Below are positions 1 through 25,208 of a DNA stretch of 64,000 bases, piece by piece. Position 1 is the stretch's first letter. Each line of letters starts with the position of its first letter. The stretch spans positions 29,218 to 93,217 of the forward strand of contig CAYVNS010000003.1 of NCBI GenBank assembly GCA_964453225.1, in the 5' to 3' direction. The notes under the pieces were generated by a model. It saw only the letters and a program-made list of their open reading frames with translations. It made no database searches and was not told the DNA's origin. The DNA is from an uncultured Rhodospirillaceae bacterium. GTDB lineage: Bacteria; Pseudomonadota; Alphaproteobacteria; UBA9219. The position numbers and the translations under genes were made by a program.

Positions 1-919
1 CAGGAAAGGCGCCTTTGAAAACCTGTTCGATTTCGCCGAACGGGTCGATCCGCATATCATCAATCGCAAGCAGCTGGAGAATCTTGCGTCCGCCGGGGCT
101 TTTGACAGCTTGAACAAGCATCGCGCGCAGGTCGTGGCCGCCATCGATGTCATGCTTCGCTACGGGCAGGAAAAGCAGGCCGAGAGGATCAGCGGCCAGG
201 GCAGCATGTTTGCCGCCGAGACGGCGGAGGCGCGGCCCGCGTTGCCGAAGGTCAAGAGCTGGGATGATTTAACGCGCTTGCAGCACGAGTTTTCGGCGCT
301 GGGCTTTTACCTGTCCGCGCATCCTTTGGACAATTATCGCGGCGTCCTTGAAAAAATGGGCGTGGAAGCCGTTCATAAGATCGGCGCGAAAATGCGCGGC
401 GCGGCAACGGCGCGTTTCAAGATCGCCGGGGTCGTCGTTTCGAAGCAGGAGCGCACGTCAAAACAGGGCAACAAGTTCGCTTTTGTTTCGATGTCGGACG
501 GCAGCGGCGCCTTCGAGGTGACCGTATTTTCGGAATTGCTGGCGGCAAGGCGCGATCTTCTTGAAGCCGGGCAAGCGGTTTTGCTGGACGTCGAGGCGCA
601 AGCCAATGCGCAAAATCGGACCAATGACGGGGTCGCCTCCGATTTGCGCTTTATCGCGCGCAGCATCGAACCCTTGGCGGAAGCCGCCGCCAAGGCCGCG
701 CGGGGCATTCGGATAAGGCTTTACGAGCCTTCGCCTGTGGCGGAGATTCAGAAACTTTTAGCCGCAGCGCCTAAGGGCCGCGCGCAAGTTGTTCTGGCGC
801 TCTCGCTGGACGACGGCGAAGAAGCGGAAGTCGAGTTGCCGGGCCACTGGGCGCTGTCCGAGGGGACGAAATCGGCCTTGCGCCAGATCGGCGTCGGGCT
901 GGAGGTGGAGGAGTATTAG
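1..919 (+). CDS. dnaE: DNA polymerase III alpha subunit, C-terminal part (5' end lies outside the window)
   Basis: The frame is open from position 2 and reads ...FDFAERVDPHIINRKQLENLASAGAFDSL..., the typical DnaE C-terminal OB-fold/tau-binding region. The ORF track lists only the internal M at 110. Confidence 0.8.
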   Translation, partial: RKGAFENLFDFAERVDPHIINRKQLENLASAGAFDSLNKHRAQVVAAIDVMLRYGQEKQAERISGQGSMFAAETAEARPALPKVKSWDDLTRLQHEFSALGFYLSAHPLDNYRGVLEKMGVEAVHKIGAKMRGAATARFKIAGVVVSKQERTSKQGNKFAFVSMSDGSGAFEVTVFSELLAARRDLLEAGQAVLLDVEAQANAQNRTNDGVASDLRFIARSIEPLAEAAAKAARGIRIRLYEPSPVAEIQKLLAAAPKGRAQVVLALSLDDGEEAEVELPGHWALSEGTKSALRQIGVGLEVEEY

Positions 920-1026
920 GGGGGGATTTTTTGACATTGAATCATGGATTATGAAATATCCCGCTCTAGCCATTTATAAAGACAGCGATTCACGTTTCGC
1001 GGTCAAAAATGGCATTAAACAATGAA

Positions 1027-1740
1027 CTACCTGCACAGTGACCGGACACGCTTCTCGCCTTGTTCTATCGATGCTGGAATATCACTCTTTGTTACCGCTT
1101 CTAAAGCTCCCAAGGCTGAAGCTAAACTCCAACCAGATTCAGTAGGACGCATACTTTTGGCCAGCGCAAGCTCTTCATAAGTATAAAGATGATTTTCCCA
1201 CTTTGCTCCACAGCATGGGAGAGGGTTTCCGCTTAGAATCGTGTTTAGCATTTCGTTCAAAAGGCCAAGAGAATGAATGGCGGCCCTATGCCTAAGGCTT
1301 TCTACAGTTTCTTCAGGCCAGATGGGAAAAGTTTTAGTGGTAATGATTGGGCCGTCGTCGATGCGTTCATTCATGTGGTGACACGTCACCCCGAAAACGT
1401 CGTCGCCGTTATGAAGGGCCCACCAATAACCGCCGACGCCCCGATATTTAGTCGGACTGGGATGAAAATTGATGGCACCATTTTTCGCACGTCTCAGCAG
1501 GGCGCGCGAAAGAATGAGATCGGATTTGAATGAGATGATCCAATCGCCATGCCAATCACTGAGATCCGGTTTGGGCATGCCTGGGGACCAGTATATAGGT
1601 AGAACAGAAGAAAAAGCGGTCGCGACCGTTTCATAACCGAGCTTTCCCCAAGGCGAGTATTCACTGACATAGAGAACCTTGGAAGCAACGGCTTTGCACT
1701 TAGTGCTCAATGGGGGGGCTGGGTCGAGAGCATAGCTCAT
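1027..1740 (-). CDS. Formyltransferase-family protein (Fmt/PurN-like N-terminal catalytic domain), ~237 aa
   Basis: Formyl_trans_N signature NFHPSPTKYRGVGGYWWALHNGDDVFGVTCHHMNERIDDGPII carries the catalytic His-x-Ser and Asp. The MSYAL start at 1740 overlaps the stop of the upstream XRE gene as ATGA. An alternative start lies at 1785. Confidence 0.6.
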   Translation of the reverse strand: MSYALDPAPPLSTKCKAVASKVLYVSEYSPWGKLGYETVATAFSSVLPIYWSPGMPKPDLSDWHGDWIISFKSDLILSRALLRRAKNGAINFHPSPTKYRGVGGYWWALHNGDDVFGVTCHHMNERIDDGPIITTKTFPIWPEETVESLRHRAAIHSLGLLNEMLNTILSGNPLPCCGAKWENHLYTYEELALAKSMRPTESGWSLASALGALEAVTKSDIPASIEQGEKRVRSLCR

Positions 1741-2417
1741 GCTTTGCCCCCTTTTTTTGATGACGGGGCATAAGCCATTTTCCAAAAGGTCTGGAATTGC
1801 TTGCGATAGGCATTCGTTACTGCGCGAGACCTGAACAACATAATTGTGGGTCCGGGCGTGGTGTCGAAATCCATGATCGCGAGAGTGTCGCCATAAATGT
1901 AGAACGGAACAGCCTGGAATACATCCTTCGATATCCAGCGGTACTCGTTATAGGCGGATGCGCAGAAATTCGTATCGCCTTCGCAGATAATGGCAAGAAC
2001 TTCGAGATCGCCGCGCGCATGAAAAACATCGGTCATGCGTTTGAGATAATACTGCGAAAATTCGTTACCAATAGTCGCTATGAAGGTAGTCTCATCGATT
2101 CCGAACATCATAATCGTGCCGCCATTTTTGCTGGCATATTCATGAACACCGTTAAAGAACTGCTGCAAGCCTTCGCGGCCAGTAAGAATATCGACAGTCG
2201 CCGGCCTGAGGCGGACGCCCTGACTATCGGTAAATTCGATTCCGCGTGTTTCCAAAATATTGCGGATCTTCCGCATTGTTTCATCGCGGTACACCGCCGT
2301 CTGATTAATAATCTTGTTCAGCGTATTGCGCCCGATCCCGGCTTCTGTTGCTAAGCTTTCTTGGGTTAGGCCCGAGAGAGCTATAGCTGCGGCGATTTGT
2401 GGGCCAGTGAGTCTCAT
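1737..2417 (-). CDS. XRE-family helix-turn-helix transcriptional regulator with an uncharacterised ~170-aa C-terminal domain
   Basis: N-terminal LTQESLATEAGIGRNTLNKIINQ is a classic XRE HTH. The MRLTGPQ start at 2417 is preferred over the track's 2453. Its stop is coupled to the downstream formyltransferase start. Confidence 0.6.
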   Translation of the reverse strand: MRLTGPQIAAAIALSGLTQESLATEAGIGRNTLNKIINQTAVYRDETMRKIRNILETRGIEFTDSQGVRLRPATVDILTGREGLQQFFNGVHEYASKNGGTIMMFGIDETTFIATIGNEFSQYYLKRMTDVFHARGDLEVLAIICEGDTNFCASAYNEYRWISKDVFQAVPFYIYGDTLAIMDFDTTPGPTIMLFRSRAVTNAYRKQFQTFWKMAYAPSSKKGGKA

Positions 2418-2656
2418 GGTAAAAGATTCCTTACTGAAATGCCGTTGTACCATACAATACTTTATGCACCGTTAAAAGGTACAAAATGATCAATTATGTT
2501 ATTCAGGCTTTTCAATAGGTTGTATCCGAAGTGTGCAGGATGCACCGCCAGAAGGTGCATATTGTATTGCTTTCATGGCAAAAATACGTACACTATCAAT
2601 ATAGGCGATGAAGAATATTTGGTTTTGTTGATATTACAAAGAGTTAGGGGATTTCG

Positions 2657-2833
2657 ATGCCGACATTCAATTTTGAGCAATTAGTTTCACGATATGGCGA
2701 TGTTTTGGCCTGGGAGTATTTGGCTGAAATTGAAAGGGCCGCATCGCTTCCTCCGCAGCAGCACATCGATGATCCTGAAATCCGCCTTGCTTATGCTCTT
2801 CAAGTTCAAGACCAATTTGCCCAAGCAGCTTAG
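2657..2833 (+). CDS. Small hypothetical protein (58 aa), paralogous to the N-terminus of the next ORF
   Basis: Read by hand (MPTFNFEQLVSRYGDVLAWEYLAEIERAAS...). AGGGG lies 7 nt upstream of the ATG. It is below the 60-aa cut-off of the ORF track. The region is AT-rich. Confidence 0.35.
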   Translation: MPTFNFEQLVSRYGDVLAWEYLAEIERAASLPPQQHIDDPEIRLAYALQVQDQFAQAA

Positions 2834-2842
2834 GGGCGCGCG

Positions 2843-3265
2843 ATGCAAAGGAATATCACCTACAGGGAACTGGTCGAGCGTTATGGGGATAAAATGGCCT
2901 ACGGCCTTCTGTTGACGCTGGAAAAGTCGGCCCAAATCCGGAACAATGTTGTTTATTTCGATGAAGAAATTCGCCTTGCCCGCATACTGGATGAAATGAA
3001 CAAGCCTTTGACACGGCACATGCGCGCGGCAAAGAACATGAACACGATGAGAAGAGACCTTCCCCCTGACGAATTAGACAGCTCCGACTTGATTTCCGTA
3101 CGCGCGCTTATTTCTTATGTGGCGCACACCAAAGGGCTTGACGAGGATGACGTTCGTTCGCTTGTTGAAAACTATTTTGGAACAAACGACATTAAGAACA
3201 TTCATCAGGCGGAATACAACAAAGCCGTTGCCTATCTTGTGGATATCGAAACGCGCGAAGCGTAA
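2843..3265 (+). CDS. Hypothetical protein (140 aa)
   Basis: Its N-terminus ([25 protein letters not shown]) parallels the preceding small ORF. AGGGG lies upstream of the ATG. No family was recognised. Confidence 0.45.
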
Positions 3266-3598
3266 ATATCCCCTTCCGTAATACCGCAACTTCAGACCCA
3301 GCCATTTGCATTCGCATTGTTTCAGTATGACGTTGATGTGAAAAAGTAGACGTCATTTATTACAGCCAAGAAAAACAAATCGGATTCCGGATAAAAGCCT
3401 CGCTACGCTTGGATTTTTCCGGAATGACGTACTTTCTAATTGAGTCTGCTCCCTATACCTCTCCCGCGAGCGCCTGGCCGCGCTGGATATGAGAAAAATT
3501 TTTAGTCCCTATTCTAAAAGGCTTTGGGTGGACAAGCGGCGCGAATGTCGTAGGATAGCAAGCTGTCGCTTTCCCGCATTCCTTTCTGTTGGCTGTTC

Positions 3599-4717
3599 AT
3601 GCTTGCTTATTTCATCCGGCGCCTTTTGCTGATCATCCCGACCTTGGTGGGCATCATGGCGCTGAATTTTTTGATCGTGCAGGCCGCGCCGGGCGGGCCG
3701 ATCGAACAGATTGTCGCGAAGTTGCACGGCACCGATGTGGCCGCGACCGCGCGCATCGGCGGATCGACCGGGGGGGATGTTTCGATGCCGCTTTCGCAAG
3801 CGACGAAAGGCAACGAGGCGTCGGACGTGACGGCGCGTTATCCCGGCGCGCAGGGGATCGACCCCGAACTGATTAAGGAGCTGGAAAAGCAATTCGGCTT
3901 CGACCAGCCTTTGCACAAGCGCTTTTTGACGATGATGGGGCGCTACCTGCAATTCGACTTCGGCAAATCCTATTTCCGGGATGAAAGCGTCGTTCAGCTG
4001 GTGCTGAACAAGATGCCAGTCTCGGTCTCGCTGGGGCTTTGGACGACGCTGATCGTTTACCTGATTTCCATTCCTCTTGGCATTCGCAAAGCCGTGAAAG
4101 ACGGCACCGCTTTCGATATGTGGAGCAGCGCCGCCATCATTGCGGGCTATGCCATTCCGAGCTTTTTGTTTGCCGTCTTGCTGATTGTCGTCTTTGCGGG
4201 CGGGCGTTATCTGGATTGGTTTCCCTTGCGCGGCCTGACCTCCGATAACTGGGGCGATATGGACTGGCCGCATCGCGTTCTTGATTACTTCTGGCATATC
4301 GCGCTGCCGGTGACGGCGCTTGTGATCGGCGGCTTTGCAAGCCTGACCATGCTGACCAAAAATTCTTTTTTAGACGAGATCAACAAGCAATATGTCTTAA
4401 CGGCGCGCGCGAAGGGATTGACCGAAAACCGCGTTCTTTACGGCCATGTTTTTCGCAACGCGATGCTGATCGTCATTGCCGGGTTTCCGACCGCGTTTCT
4501 TTCCGTTTTGTTTACCGGGTCTTTGTTGATCGAGGTGATTTTTTCGCTGGACGGGATGGGCCTTTTGGGGTTCGAGTCCGCCATTAACCGCGATTATCCT
4601 GTCATGTTCGGGACACTGTATTTCTTTACCCTATTGGGACTGATAATGAATGTTCTGGGCGATATGGCGTACGTGCTGACCGATCCCAGGATCGATTTCG
4701 AAACGCGCGAGGGCTAA
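3599..4717 (+). CDS. yejB: ABC transporter permease, YejB/OppB-like (peptide/microcin C-type importer inner membrane subunit)
   Basis: Near-full-length match in character to YejB ([34 protein letters not shown]...[10 protein letters not shown]...). It has the binding-protein-dependent transport signature. No yejA/E/F lie adjacent. Confidence 0.8.
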
Positions 4718-4960
4718 AAGGATTGTAATTTAATATTACTTTTTCCATATGAGCGGGTCGAAAAATAAACCATGTTTCTTTGCCCCATCGCCAAATCCGG
4801 CTCTTTTCAGAGCTTAAATCCATGCTTAACTTTCTGAAATTGTTATATTTAATACAGTTATCCCGCCTGGTGTGCTTTTTGTTAATAAATCCTACCATTT
4901 GTTAAAATTTGTGCTAAAGTATGCTTAACGAAGTACCCTTAAACACATGGGGCACCGATT

Positions 4961-5677
4961 ATGCGCGTTCTGCTTGTCGAAGACGATACCTCCGTTGCAA
5001 AAAGCATCGAATTGATGCTGCAGGCCGATGGTTTCATCGTTGATACGACCGATTTGGGCGAAGATGGCCTCGAGATCGGTAAGATTTATGATTATGATAT
5101 CATCATTCTGGATTTGATGTTGCCCGATATTGACGGCTACGAAGTCTTGCGCCGACTGCGCGCCGCGCGCGTGACGACGCCTATTCTGATCCTTTCGGGC
5201 CTTTCCGAGCTTGATAACAAAATCAAGGGCCTTGGGTTTGGCGCGGACGATTATTTAACCAAGCCTTTCGATCGCCGCGAACTTGTGGCGCGCATCCACG
5301 CGATCATTCGCCGCAGCAAAGGCCATTCGGACAGCGTCATTCGCACCGGCAAGCTGGTTGTCAATCTTGACACGCGCACCGTCGAAGTGGATGGATCGCC
5401 CTTGCATCTGACGGGCAAGGAATACGGCATTCTGGAACTCTTGTCGTTGCGCAAAGGCACGACCTTGACGAAGGAAATGTTCCTGAACCATCTGTATGGC
5501 GGCATGGATGAGCCGGAGCTGAAGATTATCGACGTCTTCGTTTGTAAGCTCCGCAAGAAGCTTGCGACGGCAGCCGGCGGCGAAAATTACATCGAAACCG
5601 TGTGGGGCCGCGGGTATGTTTTGCGCGATCCGCCGGGAACCGAAGCCGCACGCGCATCGGCGGCGAAGATGGCCTGA
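4961..5677 (+). CDS. ctrA: Cell-cycle response regulator CtrA (OmpR-family)
   Basis: MRVLLVEDD...[25 protein letters not shown]...[32 protein letters not shown] is almost invariant CtrA sequence. Confidence 0.92.
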
Positions 5678-5694
5678 AGGGCGCGTTATCTTTT

Positions 5695-5728
5695 AAAAAA
5701 GCCGATGCAAACGCATCGGCTTTTTTTG
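5695..5728 (+). terminator. Rho-independent terminator downstream of ctrA
   Basis: Perfect 8-bp stem gccgatgc/gcatcggc with a 4-nt loop, followed by T7. Confidence 0.7.
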
Positions 5729-5873
5729 TTGTCCAAAGTATCTTTAATCGTAACTGATTTTTATTTTGGCGCGGCCATCTGGATTCCGGGCTCTCAGCAG
5801 TGCGTCGCATTGCTTTCGCCCCGGAATGACATGCTTCCCTGAATGCTGAATCCCGAATCCTGAATGCTTATTT

Positions 5874-6488
5874 TCAGGCGACTTCTTGGATTTCTTCTTG
5901 CGTCGCCGCCAAATTCTGGGCGACGTCCTTCATGGACGGCTGGGGTTGCGCCATCGTCGGCATGGCGGGTTGGCCCTGCGGCGCATCGGTGCGTGCACGC
6001 GCGATGTGCGGCATGATGTCCTGCAATTCGATGAAATTGTCGGCCTGGCGGCGGAGTTCGTCCGCAACCATCGGCGGCGACGAGCGCATCGTGCTGACAA
6101 CGCTGACGCGTACGCCCTTGCGCTGCACGGCTTCGACCAAGCGGCGGAAATCGCCGTCGCCCGAGAAGATGATGATATGCTCGACATGATCGCACATTTC
6201 CATGACGTCGATCGCGAGCTCGATATCCATATTGCCCTTGATTTTGCGGCGGCCAAAGGCGTCCGTGAATTCCTTGGTCGGCTTGGTCACCATCGAATAG
6301 CCGTTGTAGTCGAGCCAGTCGACAAGCGGGCGAATCGGCGAATATTCTTCGTTTTCAATCAGCGCGGTATAATAAAAAGCGCGCACAAGACGCCCGCGGC
6401 CCGCAAACACTTCCAGCAGCTTCTTGTAATCGATATCAAACCCAAGTCCGCGAGCGGCGGCATAAAGATTGGCTCCATCGATAAACAT
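5874..6488 (-). CDS. NYN-domain (LabA/DUF88-like) protein
   Basis: MFIDGANLY...FYYTALIENEEYSPIRPLVDWLDYNGYS...IIIFSGDGDF is the NYN ribonuclease-like fold. The start at MFIDG (6488) is preferred. It is commonly found next to rpoZ in alphaproteobacteria. Confidence 0.7.
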   Translation of the reverse strand: MFIDGANLYAAARGLGFDIDYKKLLEVFAGRGRLVRAFYYTALIENEEYSPIRPLVDWLDYNGYSMVTKPTKEFTDAFGRRKIKGNMDIELAIDVMEMCDHVEHIIIFSGDGDFRRLVEAVQRKGVRVSVVSTMRSSPPMVADELRRQADNFIELQDIMPHIARARTDAPQGQPAMPTMAQPQPSMKDVAQNLAATQEEIQEVA

Positions 6489-6834
6489 TGCCGAACGCTC
6501 TTCTTTGTAAAAAATCATTCTTTCCTCTTATGCTGAACTTGTCATAAATGCGCCCGCCCTAAGGCTGGTTCTATAACATTACCCAAAAAAGGCAATGGCT
6601 TAGAATATTTTTCCGAGACCTTAAGGCATGCTTGTTCGGGAATCAATCGGCTTTAATATATCTTAATTTGATAGAGTTAACAAGCATGACATTCATTTGT
6701 ATGATCTCATCATAAACATGATGCTTTACAAAGGATTGCAGAAAATTGTAGGTTCCCGCTCTGGCGTATGTTTTGTGATCCTTTCGGTTTCGTAAGGTTT
6801 CATTGATTTTGTTCGCGTTAAAATTGAGGTTTTC

Positions 6835-7263
6835 ATGGCCCGTATTACCGTTGAAGATTGTGTTCTTGCCGTTCCTAACCGTTTCGAGCTTGTGATGCTC
6901 GCGGCGCATCGCGCCCGCAGCCTGAGCTCCGGCGCGGAACTGAAGGTGAGCCGCGATCGCGATAAAAACCCCGTTGTCGCCTTGCGCGAGATTGCCGAGG
7001 CGAAAGTCGATCTTTCGGGCCTTGAAGGCGCGCTGATCAAGAGCCTTCAAAAGCGCATCGAGCCGGATCAGCCCGAAGAAGAAGTGGCCGAGCTTTTGGC
7101 GAGCGAACAGCAACCCTGGATCAACGACATCGGCGCGGCCGAGGGCGACGATGCCGACGAGGCGCTGGACGAAGAAAGCGACGATTTAGCGGAAGAAGGC
7201 GCCAATGAGGCGGAACTCGGCGGCTCGTTTGAGGACGCCGGCGCCGACGAAATTAAGGACTAG
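6835..7263 (+). CDS. rpoZ: DNA-directed RNA polymerase omega subunit
   Basis: [30 protein letters not shown] is the canonical RpoZ N-terminus, followed by an acidic tail. Confidence 0.88.
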
Positions 7264-7428
7264 TTAGAACTTTTTTACAAAGGGCGTTCTTTCGCCGAAA
7301 GGCGCCGCTTTTACGTGAGTTTTAGGCGACGCGCACACGACCTGCGCGTCGCTCAATCTTCGGTTAAAGCGCCTTTGTCGGGCAAATAACTGCCTTTTGT
7401 AAACAAGTTCTTAGGAGGAAGCTGCTAT

Positions 7429-9678
7429 GTGTTTCCTTCGAAGGAACGCCGAATGCAGACCCCCGATCTTCCCGTCAAAGAGCCAGACGCCACAGCCGCG
7501 CCCGAAAAAAAAGCGCGCGGGCAACTGATGCGGCAATATGACCTTGTGGAGCGCGTGCGCGCTTACGATCCCAATTTAAACGAAGACTTGCTGAATCGCG
7601 CCTATGTCTTTTCCATGCAGGCGCACGGCAAACAGGTCCGCGCTTCCGGCGATCCTTATTTTTCGCATCCCCTTGAGGTTGCGGGCATCCTGACGAACAT
7701 GAAGATGGACTGCACGACGATCGCAGCCGCTTTGCTGCACGACGCGGTCGAGGATACGCTGGCGTCTTTGGACGATATTCAAAAACAGTTCGGGCCGAAC
7801 GTGGCGCGCCTTGTGGACGGAGTCACCAAGCTGTCGCGCATCGAGCTGCAAACCGACCAAGCCAAGCAGGCCGAAAATTTCCGCAAGCTGGTCGTCGCCA
7901 TGTCGGAAGACATCCGCGTGCTTCTGATAAAGCTGGCCGACCGTCTGCATAACATGCGAACCCTGCATTACCTGAAAGATGCCAACAAGCGCCGCCGCAT
8001 TGCGCGCGAGACGATCGAGATTTACGCGCCTCTGGCGCAGCGCATCGGCATCGAGAAGATGGAAGACGAGCTGGAGGACCTGGCGTTCGGCGAACTGAAC
8101 GCCGACGCGCGAGGCAGCGTTATCGCCCGCCTCAACTTCCTGCGCCGCGAGGGCGGAACCATTGCCCAGCGCGTGTTAAAGGAATTGCGGACGGTCTTGA
8201 CCGAGGGCGGGATCAAGGGCGCCACCGTGGAAGGCCGCGAAAAGACGCCCTATTCCATCTGGCGCAAGATGAAGCGCAAAAATGTGGGCTTCGAACAGCT
8301 TTCCGACATCATGGCCTTTCGCATCCGTGTCGATTCCGTAGACCATTGCTATCAGGCACTGGGCATCATTCACAGCCATTACCATGTCATTCCCGGGCGG
8401 TTTAAGGATTACATCTCGACGCCGAAGCCGAACCAGTATCAAAGCCTGCACACCGGCATTTTGGGGCCGGAGCAACAGCGCATCGAAATTCAGATACGCA
8501 CAAACGATATGCATGAAGTGGCCGAGCTGGGCGTTGCCGCGCACTGGGCCTACAAAGAAGGCGGCGCCGCCCCGCGCACGGACGGGTTGCAATACCGGTG
8601 GCTGCGCGAGCTTTTGGATATTGTGGAGCATGCGCAAAAGCCCGAAGAGTTCCTGGAAAACACGAAGCTGGAATTGTTTCAGGAGCAGGTTTTTTGTTTC
8701 ACGCCCAAAGGCGATTTGATCGCTTTGCCCCGCGGCTCTTCGCCCGTTGATTTCGCCTATGCCATTCATAGCCGCGTCGGCGACGCCTGCGTCGGCGCGA
8801 AAGTCAACGGACGCATGGTGCCTTTGAGAACGGCGTTGCATAACGGCGACCAGGTCGAAGTCGTGACGCAAAAAGGCAGCACGCCCTCGCCCGCGTGGGA
8901 ACGCTTTGTCGTTAGCGGCAAGGCGAAATCGTGCATCCGGCGTTTCGTGCGCTTGCAACAGCGGGCGGAATACATTCTTCTGGGCAAATCGATTCTGGAG
9001 AAACTTTGCAAGCAGGAGACGGTGGCGTACTCGGAAAAGGCTTTCGAGGCGGTCGCCAAAAACTTCCAGAGCGCGACGATTGACGATCTTTTGGCTAACG
9101 TGGGCGCGTCGTTGCAGCCCGCACGCGAAGTTTTTAACGCCGCCTATCCTTCCCATCGGCTGAAAACGCCCGACAAGGGCGAAAAACCGGCTGCGCCGAG
9201 AAAAATCGCCAAAGGAACGGTTCCTCTGACCTTGAAGGGCTTGATCCCCGGCATGGCGGTGCATTACGCGCGCTGTTGCCATCCGTTGCCCGGCGATTCC
9301 ATCGTGGGGATCGTGACGACCGGCAAGGGCGTGACCATTCATACGACCGATTGCGAAACGCTGGAAAGCTTTACGCGCGCGCCGGAGCGGTGGATCGACG
9401 TGGGATGGAGCGGCGAGAAGGAAAGAGCCGCCGATCCTATGGTGGGTCGCTTGAGTTTGGTTTTGACCAATCAGCCGAACAGCTTTGCCGCCGTGACGAC
9501 CGCCATCGGCAAAAACAGCGGCAATATTTTCAACATGAAGATCACGAACCGCACGCCGGACTTTTTCGATATTCTGATCGACGTGGAAGTCAAGGACGTC
9601 AACCATCTGACGACGATCATCGCCGCCCTGCGGGCCATCTCGGCCGTGAATTCCGTGGAGCGCACCAAGGGCAGATAA
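7429..9678 (+). CDS. spoT: Bifunctional (p)ppGpp synthetase/hydrolase Rsh (RelA/SpoT homologue)
   Basis: HD domain (FSHPLEVAGIL...LLHDAVEDT), synthetase domain (RIKTPYSIWRKM), TGS and ACT regions. GTG start at 7429, 10 nt after AGGAGG. An ATG alternative lies at 7453. Confidence 0.9.
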   Translation: MFPSKERRMQTPDLPVKEPDATAAPEKKARGQLMRQYDLVERVRAYDPNLNEDLLNRAYVFSMQAHGKQVRASGDPYFSHPLEVAGILTNMKMDCTTIAAALLHDAVEDTLASLDDIQKQFGPNVARLVDGVTKLSRIELQTDQAKQAENFRKLVVAMSEDIRVLLIKLADRLHNMRTLHYLKDANKRRRIARETIEIYAPLAQRIGIEKMEDELEDLAFGELNADARGSVIARLNFLRREGGTIAQRVLKELRTVLTEGGIKGATVEGREKTPYSIWRKMKRKNVGFEQLSDIMAFRIRVDSVDHCYQALGIIHSHYHVIPGRFKDYISTPKPNQYQSLHTGILGPEQQRIEIQIRTNDMHEVAELGVAAHWAYKEGGAAPRTDGLQYRWLRELLDIVEHAQKPEEFLENTKLELFQEQVFCFTPKGDLIALPRGSSPVDFAYAIHSRVGDACVGAKVNGRMVPLRTALHNGDQVEVVTQKGSTPSPAWERFVVSGKAKSCIRRFVRLQQRAEYILLGKSILEKLCKQETVAYSEKAFEAVAKNFQSATIDDLLANVGASLQPAREVFNAAYPSHRLKTPDKGEKPAAPRKIAKGTVPLTLKGLIPGMAVHYARCCHPLPGDSIVGIVTTGKGVTIHTTDCETLESFTRAPERWIDVGWSGEKERAADPMVGRLSLVLTNQPNSFAAVTTAIGKNSGNIFNMKITNRTPDFFDILIDVEVKDVNHLTTIIAALRAISAVNSVERTKGR

Positions 9679-18194: not shown

Positions 18195-21100
18195 TTAGCT
18201 TATTTTCTTGGCGCCGGCGGTTGCCTGTGCTTCGAGCGTGCGGCTGACGGCGTCCGTTAAGCCATCCCCTGTCGCTTCGAGCTGCATCAGGATTTGGCCC
18301 AAGCTTCGCATCAGGTCTTCGCCTTGCGTTTTTAAGGCCGTTCTCATGCGGTCCGTGCGCTGCTGCATTTCATCGATGCTTTTGTTCATGCCGACGACCT
18401 GGTTGTGCGCGTCGCTGACGCCCTTGTTCAACGCGGTCGTTTGATCGTTGTAGATCTGGCCGATGCCGCGCATGATGCCCGCCGCCGTGTTGGCGCCGGC
18501 CGCCATGTTGCTCATTTGCGACTGAACGGCGGTGACGACTTCATCCAGCTTTTCGATGGCATGGACGCTGAGGTCGCCCGACAGGGCGCGCGTGTTTTCA
18601 ACCTTTTCGGCGATGGTGGACAGATGCGACAGGAGCTGTTGCAGATGTTCGAGCGCGCTGCCTTCTTGCGATTTGATGTCGGCGCCGGCCTGAGCCATGT
18701 GGTCGATCATTTGGTCGAACTTGCCGCTGAACGACGCCAGCAAGCGGCTGACCTCTTCCATCGACTGGCGCATTCTGTTCGTGCCCGCATCGACTTGCGC
18801 GACCGCCGTTGCGCCCGTTTCCTCAAACCGCTTGCTAACGCGTTCGACATCGGAGACCGCGCCGACCGTCGTGGAGCGCAGGCTTGTGCTTGTGCGTTCC
18901 AGTTGCGCCGTGATTTTCATCAGGCCGTTGCTGATTTCGTCGATCTGGCCTTGCAGCGCGCCACGGATGCTTTCCATGTGGTCGCGCAACGTATCGCCCG
19001 TCGTGACGATGCGGTTTTCGGCCCGCGTCGTCGCTTCGGAAATCGCCTCGATCTGCTTGACGATGCCTTCGCCGGCCTGCGCCAGGCGTCCGCCTGTCGT
19101 CGCCGCGCGCTGGTCGAGCTGGTCGAAATCGCGGACGAGGCGTTCCGCCGTCACCGTGGCTTCGTTTCTTAGGGTCAACAGGCGCTGGCCCGCTTCGGCA
19201 AGCGAATCGACGCCGACGCTGGCCTTTTCGATCAGATCGCGCTGTTCGCCCGAAAGCTTGGCCGTGCTTTGCTGCATGGCGGCCACTTGCTCGGCCAACA
19301 GCTGGTTGAAGCCGTTGAGGATGCGCCCGGCGTCTTCCGCAACGCCGCCGACGCGTTTCATCTCTTCGACCATATTGCTTCGCGTCGACGCGGTGACGGA
19401 GATGAAGCGATCCGCCGTGTCGATCATCGCCTTGTTGGCGTCCATCGACTGGGCTTTCAGCGCTCGCGCGGCCGTTTCAATATCGATGAGGCCTTCCTTC
19501 AACGTGGCGGGCAACTGCTTCGCCTCGTTCTTCAGGCTTTCCGAAACCTTCGCAAAGGCTTGTTCGGACTTGGCCAGGTTCGTGCGCAAGGTATCGTTCT
19601 GCATCGCCAGCGCCTTGGACGCGCCCAGCACATGCTCGGCCGCCTTATGCGACAGATCGGAGAGATGTTGCAGCTGGCCTTGCATCGCGCCTTTGACTTC
19701 TTCGATGCGCGACGCGGCCCGTTCGACGACTTCGTGGCCCGCTTTTTCCGTGGCGGTGATCGTATCGCGCAAGACAGCCAGGCGCGTTGTGGCGTATTCC
19801 GCCGCGTTGGCCAAGGCTTCCGTCTGCGTTTCGGCCTTGTCGCCCATCTCCCCCACCACGCGCAGGTGGGCGTGCATTTTTTCGCCGATGCTTGTCAGGC
19901 GGCCTTCGGATTGATCCAGCGTTTGCGACAAGGCTTCGGTTTGGCTGCGAATAAGCTCGGCGCCGTCTTTCGTGACTTCGGTGAAGCGCTTGGTCGTTTG
20001 ATCGAGCGACTGCACGGAATCGCGCAAATGGACGGCTTGTTCCCCGATGCCGGAAGCAGCGGAGACAATGCCGCGCAATTGTTGCTCGGCCTTCTGGCCT
20101 TCGTGATTCAGGGCCACCGCCTGCTGGGCGAAACCGCCGACCGACGCGGCGACATTGGCGAGCGTTTCCTGCGCCTTCGTTCCGATGGCGTCCATGCTGT
20201 GGGTGATGCTCGTCGCGCTTTCTTGCAGGCGCTCGGCCGTACGTTCCGCCGTGGCCGCCGTTTCGTTTTGCACGCCCATAAAGCGCGTGATGAGCCCGCC
20301 GATGGTATCGCGCTGCGAGTCCAACGCGATGGCAAGCGTTTTCTGCCGGTCGTCGATTTGCTGCAAGGCCTTGGCCAAAAGCCCCGCCTTTTCGCCGATG
20401 GATTGCTGAACCGAGGACAGCGTTTTTTCGGCCGAATATCCCGCTTCGTGCATATCATGCGCGCCGGCGGAGAGGCGGCCCAAAAGCGCGTCCAGGGTTT
20501 CGTTGGTTCGCTCGCCGTCGGCTTGCATGGACAGGCGCAGATCGTAGATCTGGCCGTGCAGGCTTGTCGTCGTCGAGAAGATGGTCTGCGCCTGTTCTTC
20601 GATGCGCTTGGCTTCGATATCGATGGCTTCGGCTTCCTTGGCGAAGGATTCCGTGGCCGTGCGGACGCTGCTAAGCGCGCTTTGCGCCCGCGTGTCGATA
20701 ACGTCGGCGCTGATGGCGATTTTCTGCGCGTCTTGCGTCAGGCGCGTGGTGAGGCGATCCGACGATTGGATCGTTTCCGCCTGCGCGTCGGCAAGCCGTT
20801 CGAACAGGGACTTGATGATCTCGCGCTGGGAATCGAGCGAGGTGCCGAGCTGTTGCTGGCGATCGTTGATCTGCTGAACCAGGGCGGCGAGCGCGGCGCA
20901 TTGCTGCGTCGCGTTGTTGCCGAGAGTCATCAGGGACATTTCCGTCGAGGAGCTGATGTCCCGCAGTTCAGCCGAACCCGCCGTAATCTTGCTGAGCAGC
21001 GAGCCGTAGACCGAGTTCGTGAGATCGCCCTCTTCGCGCAGCGTGGCGCACAACGCGCCCAGCTTTTCGTTGGCGCCGGAGGCGGACGTGACAATGACGC

Positions 21101-24100
21101 GCGCATCCTCTTCCGTTTGGCGCGCTTTCTTTTCGATGGATTCGGCCTCATAGGCGAACCCGGCCGTGGCTTTTTGCAGGCTGTTGAGGGCGTCGTGCGC
21201 GCGCCTGTCGATGGTGCCGACGCTGGTCGTGATTTGCGTCACGCTTTCGGTTAGACGATTGGCGGCGCGTTCGGCTACCGACGCCGTTTCCTCCTGAACG
21301 CCGGTAAGGCGCGACATCAAGCCGTCGATCACGTCGCGCTGGGCGTTAAGCGCCGTCGTCAGCGTGCGCTGGCGGTCGCCGATCTGATTCATGGAGACGT
21401 TCAATTCGCCCGCCTGCTGTTCGAGCGCGTGATGCAGCGTGGTGAGCGCGGCGTTTGTGCTGGCGCCGATGTCGCGCACGTCGCCGCCGCCTTTTGTCAG
21501 GCGTTCGAGCAGCATTTGCAGGCTTTCGCCCGCGCGTTCGCTTTCGTTTTGCAGGCTGAGGCGCAACTGGTGCGCCTGTTCCTGCAAGGCCGAGGTCGCC
21601 GTAAGGACGGTGCGCGCCTGCTGTTCCGCCGCCTGCGCGTTTTGAAGAAGGAGCGAGGCCTGATCGGTAAAGCCCATGCTGGCGATCTTGACGTTGCCGA
21701 TGGCGGCCTGGGATTTGTCGCCGACGTCGCCGACCTGGCGCTCGATATCCTTCAGCGCGCTGGACAGATAGGCGATGGTGCGCTCGGCAATGCCGGACGC
21801 TTCCGCGTGCGCGGCGCTGAGTTTGTCGAACAATTCGAACATCTGGACGCGTTGTTTCTCGGTGGATTCCGCCAAGACGCGTTGCTGCTCGCCGATTTGA
21901 TCGCCCACGACGGCCAACGTCGCCGCCTGCTGCGTAACGTGCGCGCCGAGCGTGGAGAGCGTTTTTTCCGCCCGTTCGGCCATGGCGTGCAGTTCCTGCG
22001 TGGATTTGTCGATCGTCTTCGTGCTGCCGGAGGCCATATCGTTAAAGCGCTGCGTCGCCTGATCGGCCCCGCGCGTCGCCGTGTCGGCCACCTGGCGCAG
22101 CTTGCCTTCCGCCCCCGTAAGACGCGCGACGGAATCTTCCAGGTGCGACAAAAGCAGGCTGTTTTCCTGTTCCATATTGACGCGGATGGACGAGGCTTGA
22201 TCGGTAAGCGTGCCCGTGGCTTTCGACAGCTGGTCGAGCAGACCCGCGATCTCTTGCCCGCCGTCGACGAGCTTGACCGTATGCTCGCCGAAGGTGCCGG
22301 CCGCGCCGACAATCGCGTCCGCCGCGGTTTGCGCCGCGTGGGTCATCGTGTTCGTGCGATCCTGGAACGCCGTGATGGTGTCGTCGAGCTTGGAGAGAGC
22401 CTTCTGGCTGTACATGAGCGAGGTTTCATGCGCCGCCGCCATTTTGGCGTTGAGCGTTGAGAGCGTTTCCGCCGCACGGTCGCTGCTGACGGAAATTTTG
22501 CCCGCGTGCATTTCGATTTTGGCCGCATCGGTGGCGATTTGATCGGCCTCGCGCTGCAGGGCGCTGTGCAGCGTGTCGACCTTAATCTGCGCCGCGTTGA
22601 CCGTTTGATCCATCTTATCGGTAACCTCGCTGTAACGCGTCGCGGCGCGATCCAAAAGGACATGCGCGGCGGAGGCGCGTTCGCGCACAATCTCGCCGAG
22701 CATCGTGAATTTTTGTTCAGCGCCGGTAAGATCGCTCGAAATGGCTTCGGTCTGCTGGCGCAGGAGCGTTTCGATACGCGACGCTTCCGCCGTAAGGGAA
22801 GAGGCGACATCCTTGACATGCGTTGCGGACGTCTTGGCCTTTTCCAGCATCTGGTAAGACTCTTCGCCCACGCTGCGCGCGGCCTGCTGTAAGCATTCGA
22901 GCGCATGCGCGGCCTGCCCGTCGAGACCTTGGGTTTCGCGTTTCAGGCTGTCGGACAAATCCGTGAACTGCGCCAGGGTCTGGCGCGCGGCGTCTTCCTG
23001 CGTCGCGCGGGCGGCGCCAAATCTTTCCTCGAGCGTTTCCAGCGCGAGCACGGTATCGGCGGTCGCGCGGCTCATTTGATGGCTCATGCCCTGAACGCGG
23101 GAATGGAAATCCTGCAGGCGGCCAACCTGGGTTGACAGGCCTTCGCCGTAAACGCCCAGCGATTGCAGCCCCTGCTCGGCGCTGGCACCAATGGCGTCCA
23201 CCGCCTTTTGCACCGGCGTAACGGCCTGCGCGGCGAAGCTTTGCATCTTTTGATCCGTCGTCGCCAACTGATTCTGCGTTTCGGACAAAAGGGTCAACAG
23301 GCCCGCTGAATGATCGCGCAAATTCTTGCTGGCGACTTCCGCCTGCGCTTGCAGTTTCTGCACCGCTTCGAGCAGAATCGCTTCGCTGGCGCGGGTTTTG
23401 CCCGAGAGATCGCTTTGCTGGCGGCCAAAATTCTCGGTGGCGGCGGAAATGGCGCGCGTGCTGAGCTGGACGGTCTCGCCAAGGCGCTGAACCATCTTTT
23501 CGTTCTGGGCCATGGCGTCGTTGATATCCTTGGCCAGCTTCTCGCCGACGCTTTGGGTCGCATCGCGCACGGAGAGGACGCGTTCGAGCACTTGCTGAAG
23601 GTTTTGCAAAGCGACGCTGGCGCGGGTTTCGACTTCCTTGCCGGCCTTGTTGGACGCGACGTTCAGTTCTTCGAACTGCGCCACATGGCGCGCTATTTCA
23701 TCGGCCATATTCTTCATATGGTCGTTGCTGTCGCTGGACAGGGTGCGCAAGCGCGTGAGCGCTCCTTCGTACTTGCCCGTCGTTTCATCCAGATGGGCGG
23801 CGATGGCTTCGGCATTCGCGCGCGCATCGTCATTAACGGCGGAGAAGCGCGCCATGGTGCCGTCGGTGCGCATATTAAGATCCGAGACCGATTTCTCGAA
23901 GGAATTGATGAACTCCGAGGTCGTGGAACCGACGCGGTCGATCAGATGGTTCAAATCGCTTTGGCGGCGGTCGAGGCTGGCGTCCACGTCCACAAGACGG
24001 CCCATAAAGCGCTCCATAAGCGTTTGGAGCCCATCTGCCTGATGCGCGAGATGGTCGCTGAGCTTATTGGCTTGCTCGTGCGCAAGCTGTTCGCTGGCGT

Positions 24101-25208
24101 AAAGGCGGTCGGCCACGCCGCGAAGGATGGATTCGGCTTCGCCGACACGCACGGGAAGCGTCGTGCTGAGATCTTCCAGCGTGCGGGTTTGAGCGTCGAG
24201 CGCGTGGGTCATGCGTTCGGACTCTTCGCGGGCGGCCGAGGCACGCTCTAAAAAGCGCGCGACGCTAAGATCGATTTTGCTCGAGAGGCCGCTGAGCGTT
24301 TCGCTGGCGGCTTCGGCGGCCGTCGAAAGGCTGGATTCTTGTAAACGGGACGTATCGGCAAGCCTTTGGGTATCGAGTTGGGCGCGTTCCAGCGATTGCG
24401 AGATTTGAACCGTTGCCTGCTCGACTTCCTCCAGCATTTTGGAGACCTGCTCCCCGATGCCTTCGACTTGACGCGCAACGCCGTCGCCGTTTTTCTGCAA
24501 TTTCCCGTCGAGAACGCGCAGCATCGTGAATTTATCGTCCATCATCTGTTCGATCTGGAACATGCTGCGGCGCACGACGTCCTGGATTTCCTTGACTTGC
24601 TGCGCGCTGACGTTTTCGAAGCGCTCCAGATCCGCCCGGTGCTGCTGCACGCGGTCCATGATGGCTTCCAGATCTTCCTGGCTGACGGATTGCGCGCTGC
24701 GCAAAAGGTCGATCTGCTCACGGATCGCCTGATTAAAACGGCGGATGCGCGCATCGGCCGCGCCGGACTCGCCCGTAATAAGCGTGAGCTGGCGGCGCAA
24801 GGGGTCGGCGACGGATTCAACGTCGGACGCGCGCTGCAAGTAAGCCGTGATCATCCAGATCATGGCGACGGGAGAAACGGATGCGGAAATGCCAATGGCC
24901 CAGTCGACCAGAGAAACGCCGCCCAGGGTACGCTCGGGGCCGGACGTGCCGATGATCGCGATAACGCCGGACACCCACGCAAGAGAAATGCCCAAGCCAA
25001 TCCAGAAAGGCAAAGACGATGCCTTGGATATTTTCGGAATCGATATCTTTTTTCCGGTCGGCGGCTTGATTGCTAGTGGTGCGGGCGTATGAGCAGGAGA
25101 AGAAGTTAGGGGAGTCTTCTGCAGGGCCATTTTGATCCTCGACATTCCGGTATTAATCCCGCAAAAAGCACATACGTTTCCCCGCTCGTTTCGAGAAGGG
25201 AACGACAT
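18195..25208 (-). CDS. Giant membrane-anchored coiled-coil protein (2,337 aa), two N-terminal TM helices, internal tandem repeats
   Basis: Uninterrupted 7,014-nt ORF. ATG at 25208; an alternative start MALQK at 25130 is preceded by GAGG. TM1 is FWIGLGISLAWVSGVIAIIG and TM2 is WAIGISASVSPVAMIWMITAYL. The remainder is Ala/Gln/Glu/Leu/Thr-rich helical sequence. A candidate hairpin terminator lies at ~18130-18170. Confidence 0.75.
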   Translation of the reverse strand: MSFPSRNERGNVCAFCGINTGMSRIKMALQKTPLTSSPAHTPAPLAIKPPTGKKISIPKISKASSLPFWIGLGISLAWVSGVIAIIGTSGPERTLGGVSLVDWAIGISASVSPVAMIWMITAYLQRASDVESVADPLRRQLTLITGESGAADARIRRFNQAIREQIDLLRSAQSVSQEDLEAIMDRVQQHRADLERFENVSAQQVKEIQDVVRRSMFQIEQMMDDKFTMLRVLDGKLQKNGDGVARQVEGIGEQVSKMLEEVEQATVQISQSLERAQLDTQRLADTSRLQESSLSTAAEAASETLSGLSSKIDLSVARFLERASAAREESERMTHALDAQTRTLEDLSTTLPVRVGEAESILRGVADRLYASEQLAHEQANKLSDHLAHQADGLQTLMERFMGRLVDVDASLDRRQSDLNHLIDRVGSTTSEFINSFEKSVSDLNMRTDGTMARFSAVNDDARANAEAIAAHLDETTGKYEGALTRLRTLSSDSNDHMKNMADEIARHVAQFEELNVASNKAGKEVETRASVALQNLQQVLERVLSVRDATQSVGEKLAKDINDAMAQNEKMVQRLGETVQLSTRAISAATENFGRQQSDLSGKTRASEAILLEAVQKLQAQAEVASKNLRDHSAGLLTLLSETQNQLATTDQKMQSFAAQAVTPVQKAVDAIGASAEQGLQSLGVYGEGLSTQVGRLQDFHSRVQGMSHQMSRATADTVLALETLEERFGAARATQEDAARQTLAQFTDLSDSLKRETQGLDGQAAHALECLQQAARSVGEESYQMLEKAKTSATHVKDVASSLTAEASRIETLLRQQTEAISSDLTGAEQKFTMLGEIVRERASAAHVLLDRAATRYSEVTDKMDQTVNAAQIKVDTLHSALQREADQIATDAAKIEMHAGKISVSSDRAAETLSTLNAKMAAAHETSLMYSQKALSKLDDTITAFQDRTNTMTHAAQTAADAIVGAAGTFGEHTVKLVDGGQEIAGLLDQLSKATGTLTDQASSIRVNMEQENSLLLSHLEDSVARLTGAEGKLRQVADTATRGADQATQRFNDMASGSTKTIDKSTQELHAMAERAEKTLSTLGAHVTQQAATLAVVGDQIGEQQRVLAESTEKQRVQMFELFDKLSAAHAEASGIAERTIAYLSSALKDIERQVGDVGDKSQAAIGNVKIASMGFTDQASLLLQNAQAAEQQARTVLTATSALQEQAHQLRLSLQNESERAGESLQMLLERLTKGGGDVRDIGASTNAALTTLHHALEQQAGELNVSMNQIGDRQRTLTTALNAQRDVIDGLMSRLTGVQEETASVAERAANRLTESVTQITTSVGTIDRRAHDALNSLQKATAGFAYEAESIEKKARQTEEDARVIVTSASGANEKLGALCATLREEGDLTNSVYGSLLSKITAGSAELRDISSSTEMSLMTLGNNATQQCAALAALVQQINDRQQQLGTSLDSQREIIKSLFERLADAQAETIQSSDRLTTRLTQDAQKIAISADVIDTRAQSALSSVRTATESFAKEAEAIDIEAKRIEEQAQTIFSTTTSLHGQIYDLRLSMQADGERTNETLDALLGRLSAGAHDMHEAGYSAEKTLSSVQQSIGEKAGLLAKALQQIDDRQKTLAIALDSQRDTIGGLITRFMGVQNETAATAERTAERLQESATSITHSMDAIGTKAQETLANVAASVGGFAQQAVALNHEGQKAEQQLRGIVSAASGIGEQAVHLRDSVQSLDQTTKRFTEVTKDGAELIRSQTEALSQTLDQSEGRLTSIGEKMHAHLRVVGEMGDKAETQTEALANAAEYATTRLAVLRDTITATEKAGHEVVERAASRIEEVKGAMQGQLQHLSDLSHKAAEHVLGASKALAMQNDTLRTNLAKSEQAFAKVSESLKNEAKQLPATLKEGLIDIETAARALKAQSMDANKAMIDTADRFISVTASTRSNMVEEMKRVGGVAEDAGRILNGFNQLLAEQVAAMQQSTAKLSGEQRDLIEKASVGVDSLAEAGQRLLTLRNEATVTAERLVRDFDQLDQRAATTGGRLAQAGEGIVKQIEAISEATTRAENRIVTTGDTLRDHMESIRGALQGQIDEISNGLMKITAQLERTSTSLRSTTVGAVSDVERVSKRFEETGATAVAQVDAGTNRMRQSMEEVSRLLASFSGKFDQMIDHMAQAGADIKSQEGSALEHLQQLLSHLSTIAEKVENTRALSGDLSVHAIEKLDEVVTAVQSQMSNMAAGANTAAGIMRGIGQIYNDQTTALNKGVSDAHNQVVGMNKSIDEMQQRTDRMRTALKTQGEDLMRSLGQILMQLEATGDGLTDAVSRTLEAQATAGAKKIS

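Follow-up and report, generated by a model that had tools for sequence, protein, structure and literature searches.

In PMC7901475, the XRE-cupin proteins of Pseudomonas are described as local repressors that combine an XRE helix-turn-helix (HTH) with a putatively sensory domain and act on adjacent small-molecule metabolism genes. In Rhodococcus fascians, the att locus, according to PMC4092121, makes an unidentified secondary metabolite, and a reference title quoted in that paper describes the att product as an autoregulatory compound. The locus analysed here joins a regulator of XRE type to a formyltransferase (FT) whose nearest relatives lie in att-like clusters. It was found in a stretch of 64,000 nucleotides, hereafter the window, from an uncultured Rhodospirillaceae bacterium (GTDB lineage UBA9219; assembly GCA_964453225.1, contig CAYVNS010000003.1, positions 29,218 to 93,217 of the forward strand), where the XRE and FT genes lie in an AT-rich islet together with two divergent genes for small proteins. 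The XRE and FT genes form one translationally coupled operon. Across lineages of uncultured Alphaproteobacteria, conservation extends to the regulator, the small proteins, an upstream 10-mer and the stop/start coupling. Our best explanation, which we hold with slightly less than even confidence, is that the module is a self-contained, acquired and autoregulated four-gene cassette controlling a small-molecule N-formyltransferase. The operon consists of the following features:

1737-2417, minus strand: XRE regulator gene, 226 aa, starting with the ATG at 2417 and matching HTH_3
1027-1740, minus strand: formyltransferase gene, 237 aa, matching Pfam PF00551 with 65.8 bits
1737-1753, minus strand: translational-coupling junction, made up of an ATGA overlap (1737-1740) and an AAGGGGG Shine-Dalgarno sequence (1747-1753) within the 3' end of the XRE gene

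The plus strand at 1737-1740 reads TCAT, so that the coding strand carries the ATGA in which the XRE stop and the FT start overlap, just as a preliminary description of this DNA had reported. The Shine-Dalgarno sequence of the FT is encoded by the Lys/Gly-rich tail codons of the XRE gene, which itself has an AAGGAA Shine-Dalgarno sequence 8 nt upstream of its ATG at 2417; in alignments, XRE homologues share the start MRLTGxQI with the window protein. Because its homologues begin at the same methionine, the FT is taken to start at the ATG at 1740 rather than as a longer open reading frame (ORF) from a TTG. For comparison we assembled 19 loci from GTDB species representatives by a scan with the XRE alignment, 28 metagenome loci and 6 Pfam-annotated contigs (numbered with the prefix L); the 19 GTDB loci all come from metagenome-assembled genomes (MAGs) of uncultured Alphaproteobacteria, Micavibrio or 'Bdellovibrionales'. 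The XRE-FT pair, for which co-occurrence across genomes had been proposed as a check, is present in at least 10 distinct metagenomic lineages. The ATGA overlap recurs in seven of the nine unique XRE-FT loci (the window, L001, L007, L008, L027, L028 and L030), and the remaining two have a 1-nt overlap (L012) and a gap of about 23 nt (L009). Nor is this precision tied to the FT: in 19 of 24 unique loci, the start of the coupled gene, whichever enzyme it encodes, falls at -4 to 0 nt from the XRE stop.

Module layout, as determined by hidden Markov model (HMM) searches and by clustering of locus ORFs, shows that the XRE gene is constant across about 40 related metagenomic loci and that the gene coupled to its stop codon varies. 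The FT is one of at least seven alternative enzymes in this slot, most of which act on amino groups:

FT: the window, L001, L007-L010, L012, L027, L028 and L030
NPPY, HemK-like amino-methyltransferase: nearest to HemK, not to DNA methyltransferases
GNATs of two kinds: nearest solved relative SSAT2
EgtD-like Methyltransf_33 protein: once with a GNAT and an MFS exporter
Fatty-acid-desaturase-family protein (FA_desaturase)
DIT1_PvcA isonitrile synthase: L064 5001-6558, with a distant relative of the XRE protein and its PLD-type domain
LPG_synthase_C-like gene: behind a more distant XRE-like paralogue and, elsewhere, near another copy of the module

In a tree, XRE clades follow enzyme type. The GNATs in the slot had no significant sequence match to any GNAT-toxin chain in the PDB. 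Most of the enzyme families act on amino groups, and their characterised relatives mostly on those of free amino acids (EgtD, PvcA/IsnA, SSAT2-like GNAT, att-type FT), from which we propose the substrate of the FT. The slot can stack its cargo, as in some relatives the XRE gene precedes two enzyme genes: a methyltransferase then an FT (L051, 8001-10246), an FT then an Eis-like GNAT of 294 aa (L007, 10001-12308), a methyltransferase then an Eis-like GNAT as in L007 (L015, 1759-4196), and an EgtD-like methyltransferase, a GNAT and an MFS exporter (L044, 6172-10121). Loci L059 and L060 belong to a single JGI contig of 916 kb that holds at least two modules with different enzymes about 300 kb apart: in one, the XRE gene precedes two GNAT genes; in the other, three XRE-family genes surround an LPG_synthase_C-like gene, and a gene for 5-formyl-tetrahydrofolate cyclo-ligase lies 2 kb away. 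The contig of L064 is plasmid-like, with ParA, an RPA replication protein and ParDE. In L011 (487-4865) and L030 (2859-5630), close XRE relatives stand directly beside genes resembling type III/type I restriction-modification (R-M) genes (N6_N4_Mtase, ResIII), though not in an operon with them, and one of these two relatives has no cargo gene at all.

As for the enzyme itself, the preliminary description had noted a stand-alone FT of about 240 aa that lacks the C-terminal domain of Fmt and had placed enzymes of this size among sugar or other small-molecule N-formyltransferases, and both points hold: the protein has 237 aa and no match to the Fmt C-terminal tRNA-binding domain PF02911, and its best solved neighbours by Foldseek are the ArnA FT domain, WbkC and Rv3404c, all at a TM-score of about 0.6. 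In its AlphaFold2 (AF2) model (pLDDT 84.8), the core spans approximately residues 22-185, preceded by some 20 disordered residues and followed by a C-terminal tail of about 40 aa, likewise disordered in the model. The match to Formyl_trans_N (PF00551) exceeds the cut-off of 26.1 bits and covers only profile positions 81-170 of 181; its confinement to the C-terminal half of the profile indicates a shortened N-terminal subdomain. Residues N91, H93 and D128 are invariant in 26 FT homologues and align with the WbkC motifs SVNLHPS and HRMDENFDTG and with ArnA; the Asn-His-Asp catalytic triad is thus intact, and the enzyme does not show the loss of catalytic residues that would have spoken against a functional pair. 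At the same time, the FT misses all of the NCBIfam equivalog cut-offs, namely those of Fmt (TIGR00460; 57.9 bits against 201.5), PurN (58.2 against 150.1), ArnA (59.5 against 777), PurU, and the sugar FTs (dTDP-4-amino-4,6-dideoxyglucose FT; 22.3 against 238).

The FT family is tiny, with 88 proteins among 5.8 billion. Long versions (about 230-250 aa) come from alphaproteobacterial MAGs, and short versions (about 190-200 aa) from Brenneria, Photorhabdus, Niastella, Actinokineospora, Amycolatopsis and Rhodococcus. These short FTs occur in att-like clusters, in the order LysR-LysE-ArgH-ArgG-FT plus further genes on R. fascians plasmid pFiD188 (L058), ArgG-FT-ArgH-B3_4-LysE in Brenneria (L004-L006) and 2-oxoglutarate oxygenase-EamA-FT-ArgG in Actinokineospora (L056); they consistently adjoin argininosuccinate synthase/lyase-like genes and LysE or EamA exporters, and the Brenneria clusters also hold a gene for a stand-alone B3_4 (PheRS-beta editing-like) domain. 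The window FT is 37% identical to the R. fascians att FT (E 8e-30, as against about 1e-11 for ArnA). The window contains no ArgG/ArgH-like genes with an amino-acid exporter around the FT. No sugar-nucleotide, glycosyltransferase or polysaccharide genes adjoin the FT in the window or in the other loci that bear the pair, nor is there a sugar-nucleotide cluster among the nearest FT relatives (R. fascians att, Brenneria, Actinokineospora). Because these nearest relatives lie in att-like clusters, the comparison points to an amino-acid-type small molecule as the acceptor, and not to a sugar nucleotide or tRNA. The ending -R(x)VA is found on many XRE-linked FTs, and -KAA, -KVA or -KRA on several GNATs from the slot, and may represent a C-terminal degron or docking motif shared by the enzymes; the window FT ends in -SLCR instead.

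The regulator consists of an N-terminal HTH (residues 1-58, nt 2244-2417), for which HTH_3 scores above its cut-off over residues 10-56, a C-terminal domain (C-domain; residues approximately 73-214, nt 1776-2201) and the Lys/Gly-rich tail. By profile as well as by structure, the closest solved relative of the HTH is the R-M controller protein C.Kpn2I. The remaining 155 or so residues match no family in Pfam, NCBIfam or PADLOC. Fold searches were run with AF2 models of both proteins, and as they led the FT to ArnA and the sugar FTs, so they led the C-domain of the regulator (model pLDDT 85.5) to a predicted PLD/Nuc-like fold, with structural matches to Nuc, NucT, BfiI, SauUSI, NgoAVII, FAM83 and TrmB. 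The extra C-terminal domain that had been assigned to an unknown family is therefore present, at about 155 aa, but its fold is a recognisable one that lacks the HKD motif: across 33 sequences, no histidine of an HxK(x)4D motif is invariant or nearly so, and the best histidine column reaches 73% and is occupied by Asn in the window protein. Since no histidine is conserved, we regard the catalytic motif as absent and rejected the reading of the C-domain as an HKD nuclease; it is probably non-catalytic, as are the domains of FAM83 and TrmB. The likeness to TrmB is structural only, as no Pfam match to the TrmB winged HTH or to Regulator_TrmB was obtained in the XRE protein even at E <= 1. Conservation is also much higher in the C-domain, with a mean pairwise identity of 0.68 as against 0.37 in the HTH, and almost all of the 38 invariant columns of the whole-protein alignment fall within the C-domain. 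When 1.84 billion representatives were scanned in full with the C-domain in HMMER, 507 clusters, counted at 50% identity, were returned, nearly all of about 210-240 aa with the domain at approximately residues 70-220; all of the clusters looked up are metagenomic. Searches of the literature for an XRE regulator with a PLD-like domain and for the pairing of an FT with toxin-antitoxin (TA) systems returned nothing relevant, nor any account of the cassette; a paper on Caulobacter XRE paralogues was set aside, as it concerns unrelated small XREs.

Between the XRE gene and the divergent genes lies a control region with the following features:

2418-2656, no strand: control region that separates the XRE gene from the divergent small-protein genes
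2540-2560, no strand: perfect palindrome ATGCACC-N7-GGTGCAT, a putative XRE operator
2464-2484, no strand: second, imperfect copy of the palindrome, ATGCACCGTTAAAAGGTACAA (direct-repeat family D2, inverted repeat I10), 76 nt from the first
2566-2575, minus strand: 10-mer TGAAAGCAAT in the XRE sense (ATTGCTTTCA on the plus strand), conserved across loci

With at most one mismatch, the 10-mer TGAAAGCAAT is found in the sense orientation in 23 of 31 unique upstream regions and in the antisense orientation in one of 31, and random segments contain it in 78 of 1240 cases (6%); the -35 element of the XRE promoter probably lies within it. The palindromes follow the 10-mer by 10-17 nt and differ in sequence by lineage: in L007, the closest XRE relative, CACC-N7-GGTG stands at the equivalent place, and other lineages have CTGCATAATGCAG and CTCTCATTATGAGA. 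TGCAC/GTGCA motifs, prominent in the control region of the window, are not conserved elsewhere and are thus lineage-specific operators at best. A sigma-70-like match (TTGAAA, 18 nt, GATCAT) occurs at 2515-2486 on the minus strand, and such matches are no commoner here than in shuffled sequences; likewise, the number of matches in the promoter and terminator scan did not exceed that in shuffles. Judged by its motifs, the region looks like an autoregulated promoter with putative operators specific to each HTH.

The two genes on the other side of the control region are built from a domain A of about 55 aa and a domain B of about 65 aa:

2657-2833, plus strand: 58-aa protein, domain A only, ending in -AQAA and matching the HMMs of small-protein families C2 and C6
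2843-3265, plus strand: 140-aa protein, domains A and B, by alignment a tandem paralogue of the 58-aa gene

Each gene stands behind an identical TAGGGG Shine-Dalgarno sequence. An ending in -AA or -VA is found in 14 of 16 C6 and 14 of 33 C2 proteins consisting of domain A only, as against 1 of 49 window ORFs and 12 of 111 flank ORFs. An -AA ending is one form of the ssrA-type degron recognised by ClpXP, and the end of the 58-aa protein resembles such a degron, making it a candidate. Domain B has a weak match to the PHROG family 'anti-repressor Ant' (E 0.0047); the 140-aa protein belongs to no Pfam or NCBIfam family, and a word-index search returned only two relatives. The small proteins probably modulate the XRE regulator.

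The four ORFs of the islet, all with cross-locus support, are set apart by their composition, and the AT-rich stretch that had been noted next to dnaE at 1.0-3.5 kb was borne out: GC content is 0.473 over the 2.7 kb from 920 to 3598, as against 0.564 for the window, and GC at third codon positions (GC3) is 0.39-0.57 in the four islet genes, as against 0.68 +/- 0.07 in 30 long window ORFs. On its two sides lie the C-terminus of DnaE (HHH_6 and OB fold) and a BPD_transp_1 ABC permease, beyond which follow CtrA-like, NYN and SpoT genes. Its edges are:

920-1026, no strand: left edge, the DNA that separates the stops of dnaE and the FT gene; it holds an imperfect inverted repeat (928-949 / 988-1009, 73% complementary; I2)
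3266-3598, no strand: right edge, 333 nt of AT-rich non-coding DNA ahead of the ABC permease gene

Neither a target-site duplication nor flanking direct repeats were found at these edges, and no att-like repeat pairs left with right. As already remarked in the preliminary description, the islet lacks an integrase and a tRNA: no recombinase or integrase is encoded among its ORFs, and ARAGORN finds no tRNA anywhere in the 64 kb. Module GC is below that of the flanks in 17 of the 19 loci, by a mean of 5 points. When the dnaE and permease flanks were searched for in all of the fetched loci, the sole match was a short contig of the same organism; the islet is thus not syntenic in these loci, and the pair never lies within a lipopolysaccharide (LPS) or O-antigen cluster, a setting that would have told against its acquisition. 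A census of the flanks (111 proteins from 22 loci) counted RepB (3), relaxase (3), resolvase (2), ResIII (2) and DotI/IcmL (2), beside many housekeeping genes, and single loci adjoin a VirB4 type IV secretion system, a serine recombinase with ParB, R-M genes, IS1595 with Schlafen/AAA_21, or ParA/RPA/ParDE. XRE relatives are found neither in IMG/VR nor among PLSDB plasmids, and matches in BFVD are to the HTH only. In the window, the module takes a minimal form, made up of switch and cargo. Rfam (E <= 1) finds no known RNA family at 1-8000, save a sub-threshold match outside the islet to the enterobacterial small RNA STnc230, at 5688-5772 on the minus strand (34 bits, gathering score 50, E 0.044); this match, a short way downstream of the CtrA-like gene, probably reflects a terminator hairpin. 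Other window stretches below 50% GC are 4500-5000 (intergenic, upstream of the CtrA-like gene), 42250-43750 and that of a 275-aa ORF at 52364-53191 on the minus strand (GC3 0.54); the window also contains a very long ORF of 2337 aa at 18195-25208 on the minus strand (GC 0.615).

If the islet is such a self-contained cassette, horizontally acquired and mobile, its working can be pictured as follows. An XRE dimer would bind the palindromes at 2540-2560 and 2464-2484 and so autoregulate the operon, and translational coupling would tie FT output to regulator output. The PLD-fold domain would serve in dimerisation and in the binding of a partner or ligand, with no catalysis, and the degron-tagged small proteins may act as protease-gated, antirepressor-like modulators. 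The FT would use 10-formyl-tetrahydrofolate to N-formylate a free small molecule resembling an amino acid, giving its host an accessory trait that might consist in an N-capped metabolite or signal, or in the neutralisation of a toxic amine. Several points weigh against this explanation. The characterised relatives of the HemK-like and LPG_synthase_C-like enzymes act on macromolecules (release factors and aminoacyl-tRNA) rather than on free amino acids; the XRE tree tracks the enzyme, so that the regulator may be functionally matched to it rather than indifferent; near-universal stop/start coupling is typical of operons with a harmful second product, such as controller-nuclease and antitoxin-toxin pairs, and hints at more than ordinary co-regulation; and nothing in the window copy, neither recombinase nor repeats, would account for its movement.

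Other explanations differ in the role that they assign to the enzyme. That the FT is an ordinary LPS or O-antigen sugar N-formyltransferase with a local regulator would fit its best solved-structure neighbours, which are ArnA, WbkC and other nucleotide-sugar N-formyltransferases, but this is barely credible given that no sugar-nucleotide, glycosyltransferase or polysaccharide gene adjoins any pair locus, that the equivalog cut-offs are missed by a wide margin, that the N-terminal subdomain is shortened, and that the closest sequence relatives are of att type. More can be said for a pair of signal synthase and receptor, in which the enzyme makes an N-capped amino acid (here N-formyl) that is sensed by the PLD-fold domain of the XRE protein in an autoinduction loop, with different enzymes giving orthogonal signals. 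Each module has one enzyme and one regulator whose clades follow the type of enzyme, several modules with different enzymes can occur in one genome, some of the enzymes are biosynthetic rather than detoxifying (EgtD-like, PvcA/IsnA-like), and an exporter sometimes follows. The C-domain, moreover, structurally matches the PLD-like subdomain of TrmB, which takes part in sugar sensing, and the nearest FT relatives lie in the att locus, with its product described as an autoregulatory compound in a title quoted in PMC4092121. We nevertheless consider such a pair unlikely, as the putative sensor domain is highly conserved across enzyme types, which is unexpected if ligands differ, and as the divergent degron-tagged proteins have no role in it. 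Equally, the XRE protein might be the maintenance repressor of a small mobile element or its remnant, with the small proteins as the Cro or antirepressor side and the enzyme as an unrelated passenger ('moron') of the quiescent state. The divergent, switch-like layout with lineage-specific putative operators, the weak Ant-like match, the plasmid-borne or integrative-and-conjugative-element-borne copies, and the larger versions such as L007, L015 and L023, whose divergent side holds a further XRE paralogue and many small genes in a row, are all in keeping with this. Yet there are no relatives in IMG/VR or PLSDB, nor in BFVD beyond the HTH; most copies, that of the window included, sit among housekeeping genes without a recombinase; and passengers would be expected neither to be so uniformly amino-group transferases nor to be so precisely coupled to the repressor stop, all of which makes this too an improbable account.

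The remaining two explanations start from the resemblance of the module to defence systems. An R-M-like or anti-defence module, with a nuclease of the PLD family attached to a controller-type HTH and with an enzyme that modifies nucleic acid or protein as partner, could be read from the nearness of the HTH to C.Kpn2I, from the fold matches of the C-domain to Nuc, NucT, BfiI, SauUSI and NgoAVII, and from the NPPY amino-methyltransferases as one class of cargo; but the C-domain has no HKD motif and matches the non-catalytic FAM83 and TrmB equally well, the methyltransferases are nearest to HemK and not to DNA methyltransferases, and the relatives of the FT point to small-molecule chemistry, so that we think this very improbable. 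The suggestion made at the outset was that of a modification/immunity or toxin-antitoxin-like pair. Under it, the FT and its methyl- and acetyltransferring counterparts would arrest growth, for example by blocking the alpha-amino group of aminoacyl-tRNA, with the XRE protein restraining them and the labile small proteins releasing them in a manner akin to TA or abortive-infection systems. Aminoacyl-tRNA is the target of known acetylating GNAT toxins, and Met-tRNA is formylated by Fmt; besides these precedents on aminoacyl-tRNA, the regulator-first order, the stop/start overlap kept in 19 of 24 loci, the AT-rich and mobile islets, the degron-like ends of the neighbouring small proteins, the copies beside R-M, Schlafen/AAA_21 or ParDE genes, and the membership of the LPG_synthase_C cargo in a family that uses aminoacyl-tRNA all favour it. 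One point that disfavours it is the C-domain: a single conserved domain (68% mean pairwise identity) that recurs beside at least five unrelated enzyme folds, and also beside tandem enzymes, cannot be a fold-specific neutraliser. Its partners include the FT, methyltransferases of two folds, GNATs, a desaturase and an isonitrile synthase. There is, furthermore, no PADLOC, NCBIfam or Pfam match to a TA family beyond the generic HTH, and none in PADLOC for the FT; the XRE protein stays below threshold (16.9 bits against 71.65 for the HipB-like and 12.1 against 47.7 for the HigA model), the GNATs are nearest to SSAT2 and not to TacT or AtaT, the FT has no tRNA-binding domain, and several cargos (EgtD-like, PvcA-like, desaturase, MFS) handle small molecules as enzymes or transporters. 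A toxin-antitoxin role thus appears quite unlikely, and we keep it in view because the coupling, the regulator-first order, the labile small proteins and the defence-island neighbours hint at more than ordinary co-regulation.

With the acquired, autoregulated cassette as the preferred explanation, these results describe a previously unrecognised regulator family of about 500 clusters that combines an XRE HTH with a probably non-catalytic PLD fold and has no Pfam model. They also give a first functional lead on the minimal att-type formyltransferases. Through guilt by association, the regulator could help to find uncharacterised enzymes that N-modify small molecules in uncultured Alphaproteobacteria, much as Aca genes have helped to find anti-CRISPRs, and the module would represent a new type of system if its enzyme proved to be a controlled toxin or a signal synthase. 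A bolder generalisation, to which we give little credence, is that the cassettes are minimal one-enzyme/one-receptor systems for chemical signalling or self/non-self marking, in which the enzyme would make an N-formyl, N-acetyl, N-methyl or isonitrile amino acid, the PLD-fold domain of the XRE protein would read the derivative, and the ClpXP-labile small proteins would reset the switch; if true, both the receptor fold and the signal chemistry would be new for communication between bacterial cells or between element and host.

Compared with known systems, parts of the module are familiar: an XRE protein that autoregulates an operon with a coupled enzyme, and a two-domain regulator of HTH and PLD-like domains, as in TrmB. 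In the controller (C) proteins of R-M systems (C.Kpn2I, PDB 4yba), the regulator gene likewise comes first and overlaps the downstream enzyme gene, and paired palindromes lie upstream of it, to which the two related palindromes at 2540-2560 and 2464-2484 may correspond here as putative sites; C proteins, however, lack the PLD-fold domain of 155 aa found in the window XRE protein, and the islet offers no nuclease or DNA methyltransferase as partner, the downstream gene being the FT. Unlike TrmB and TrmBL2, the window regulator has an XRE HTH rather than a winged helix at its N-terminus and no C-terminal sugar-binding barrel, and its lineage is one of uncultured Alphaproteobacteria. With type II TA systems (HipBA, HigBA, Xre-RES and the GNAT toxins) it shares a leading HTH gene that overlaps the second gene, and mobile AT-rich islets, but the regulator is large, its non-HTH domain is conserved whatever the fold of the partner, and the TA families give no match. 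The solved sugar FTs (the ArnA FT domain, WbkC, Rv3404c and WlaRD) have the same fold and catalytic triad at a TM-score of about 0.6, yet they are only 18-28% identical to the window FT, which differs in its shortened N-terminal subdomain and in the lack of a polysaccharide context. Closest in sequence to the FT core are the att-type FTs (37-48% identity), minimal enzymes of about 190-200 aa with the same invariant residues; these, in contrast, are flanked by ArgG/ArgH-like genes and exporters and stand under a LysR regulator, and have neither the N- and C-terminal tails nor an XRE partner. The XRE-cupin repressors, as described in PMC7901475, resemble the window regulator in joining an XRE HTH to a second, putatively sensory domain and in lying next to small-molecule genes, whereas here the second domain is PLD-like, the enzyme is translationally coupled, and the apparently mobile cassette includes small proteins with degron-like tags. 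What is new is the combination itself, with its plug-in enzyme slot and its degron-tagged partners, and with a C-domain and small proteins for which no curated profile exists.

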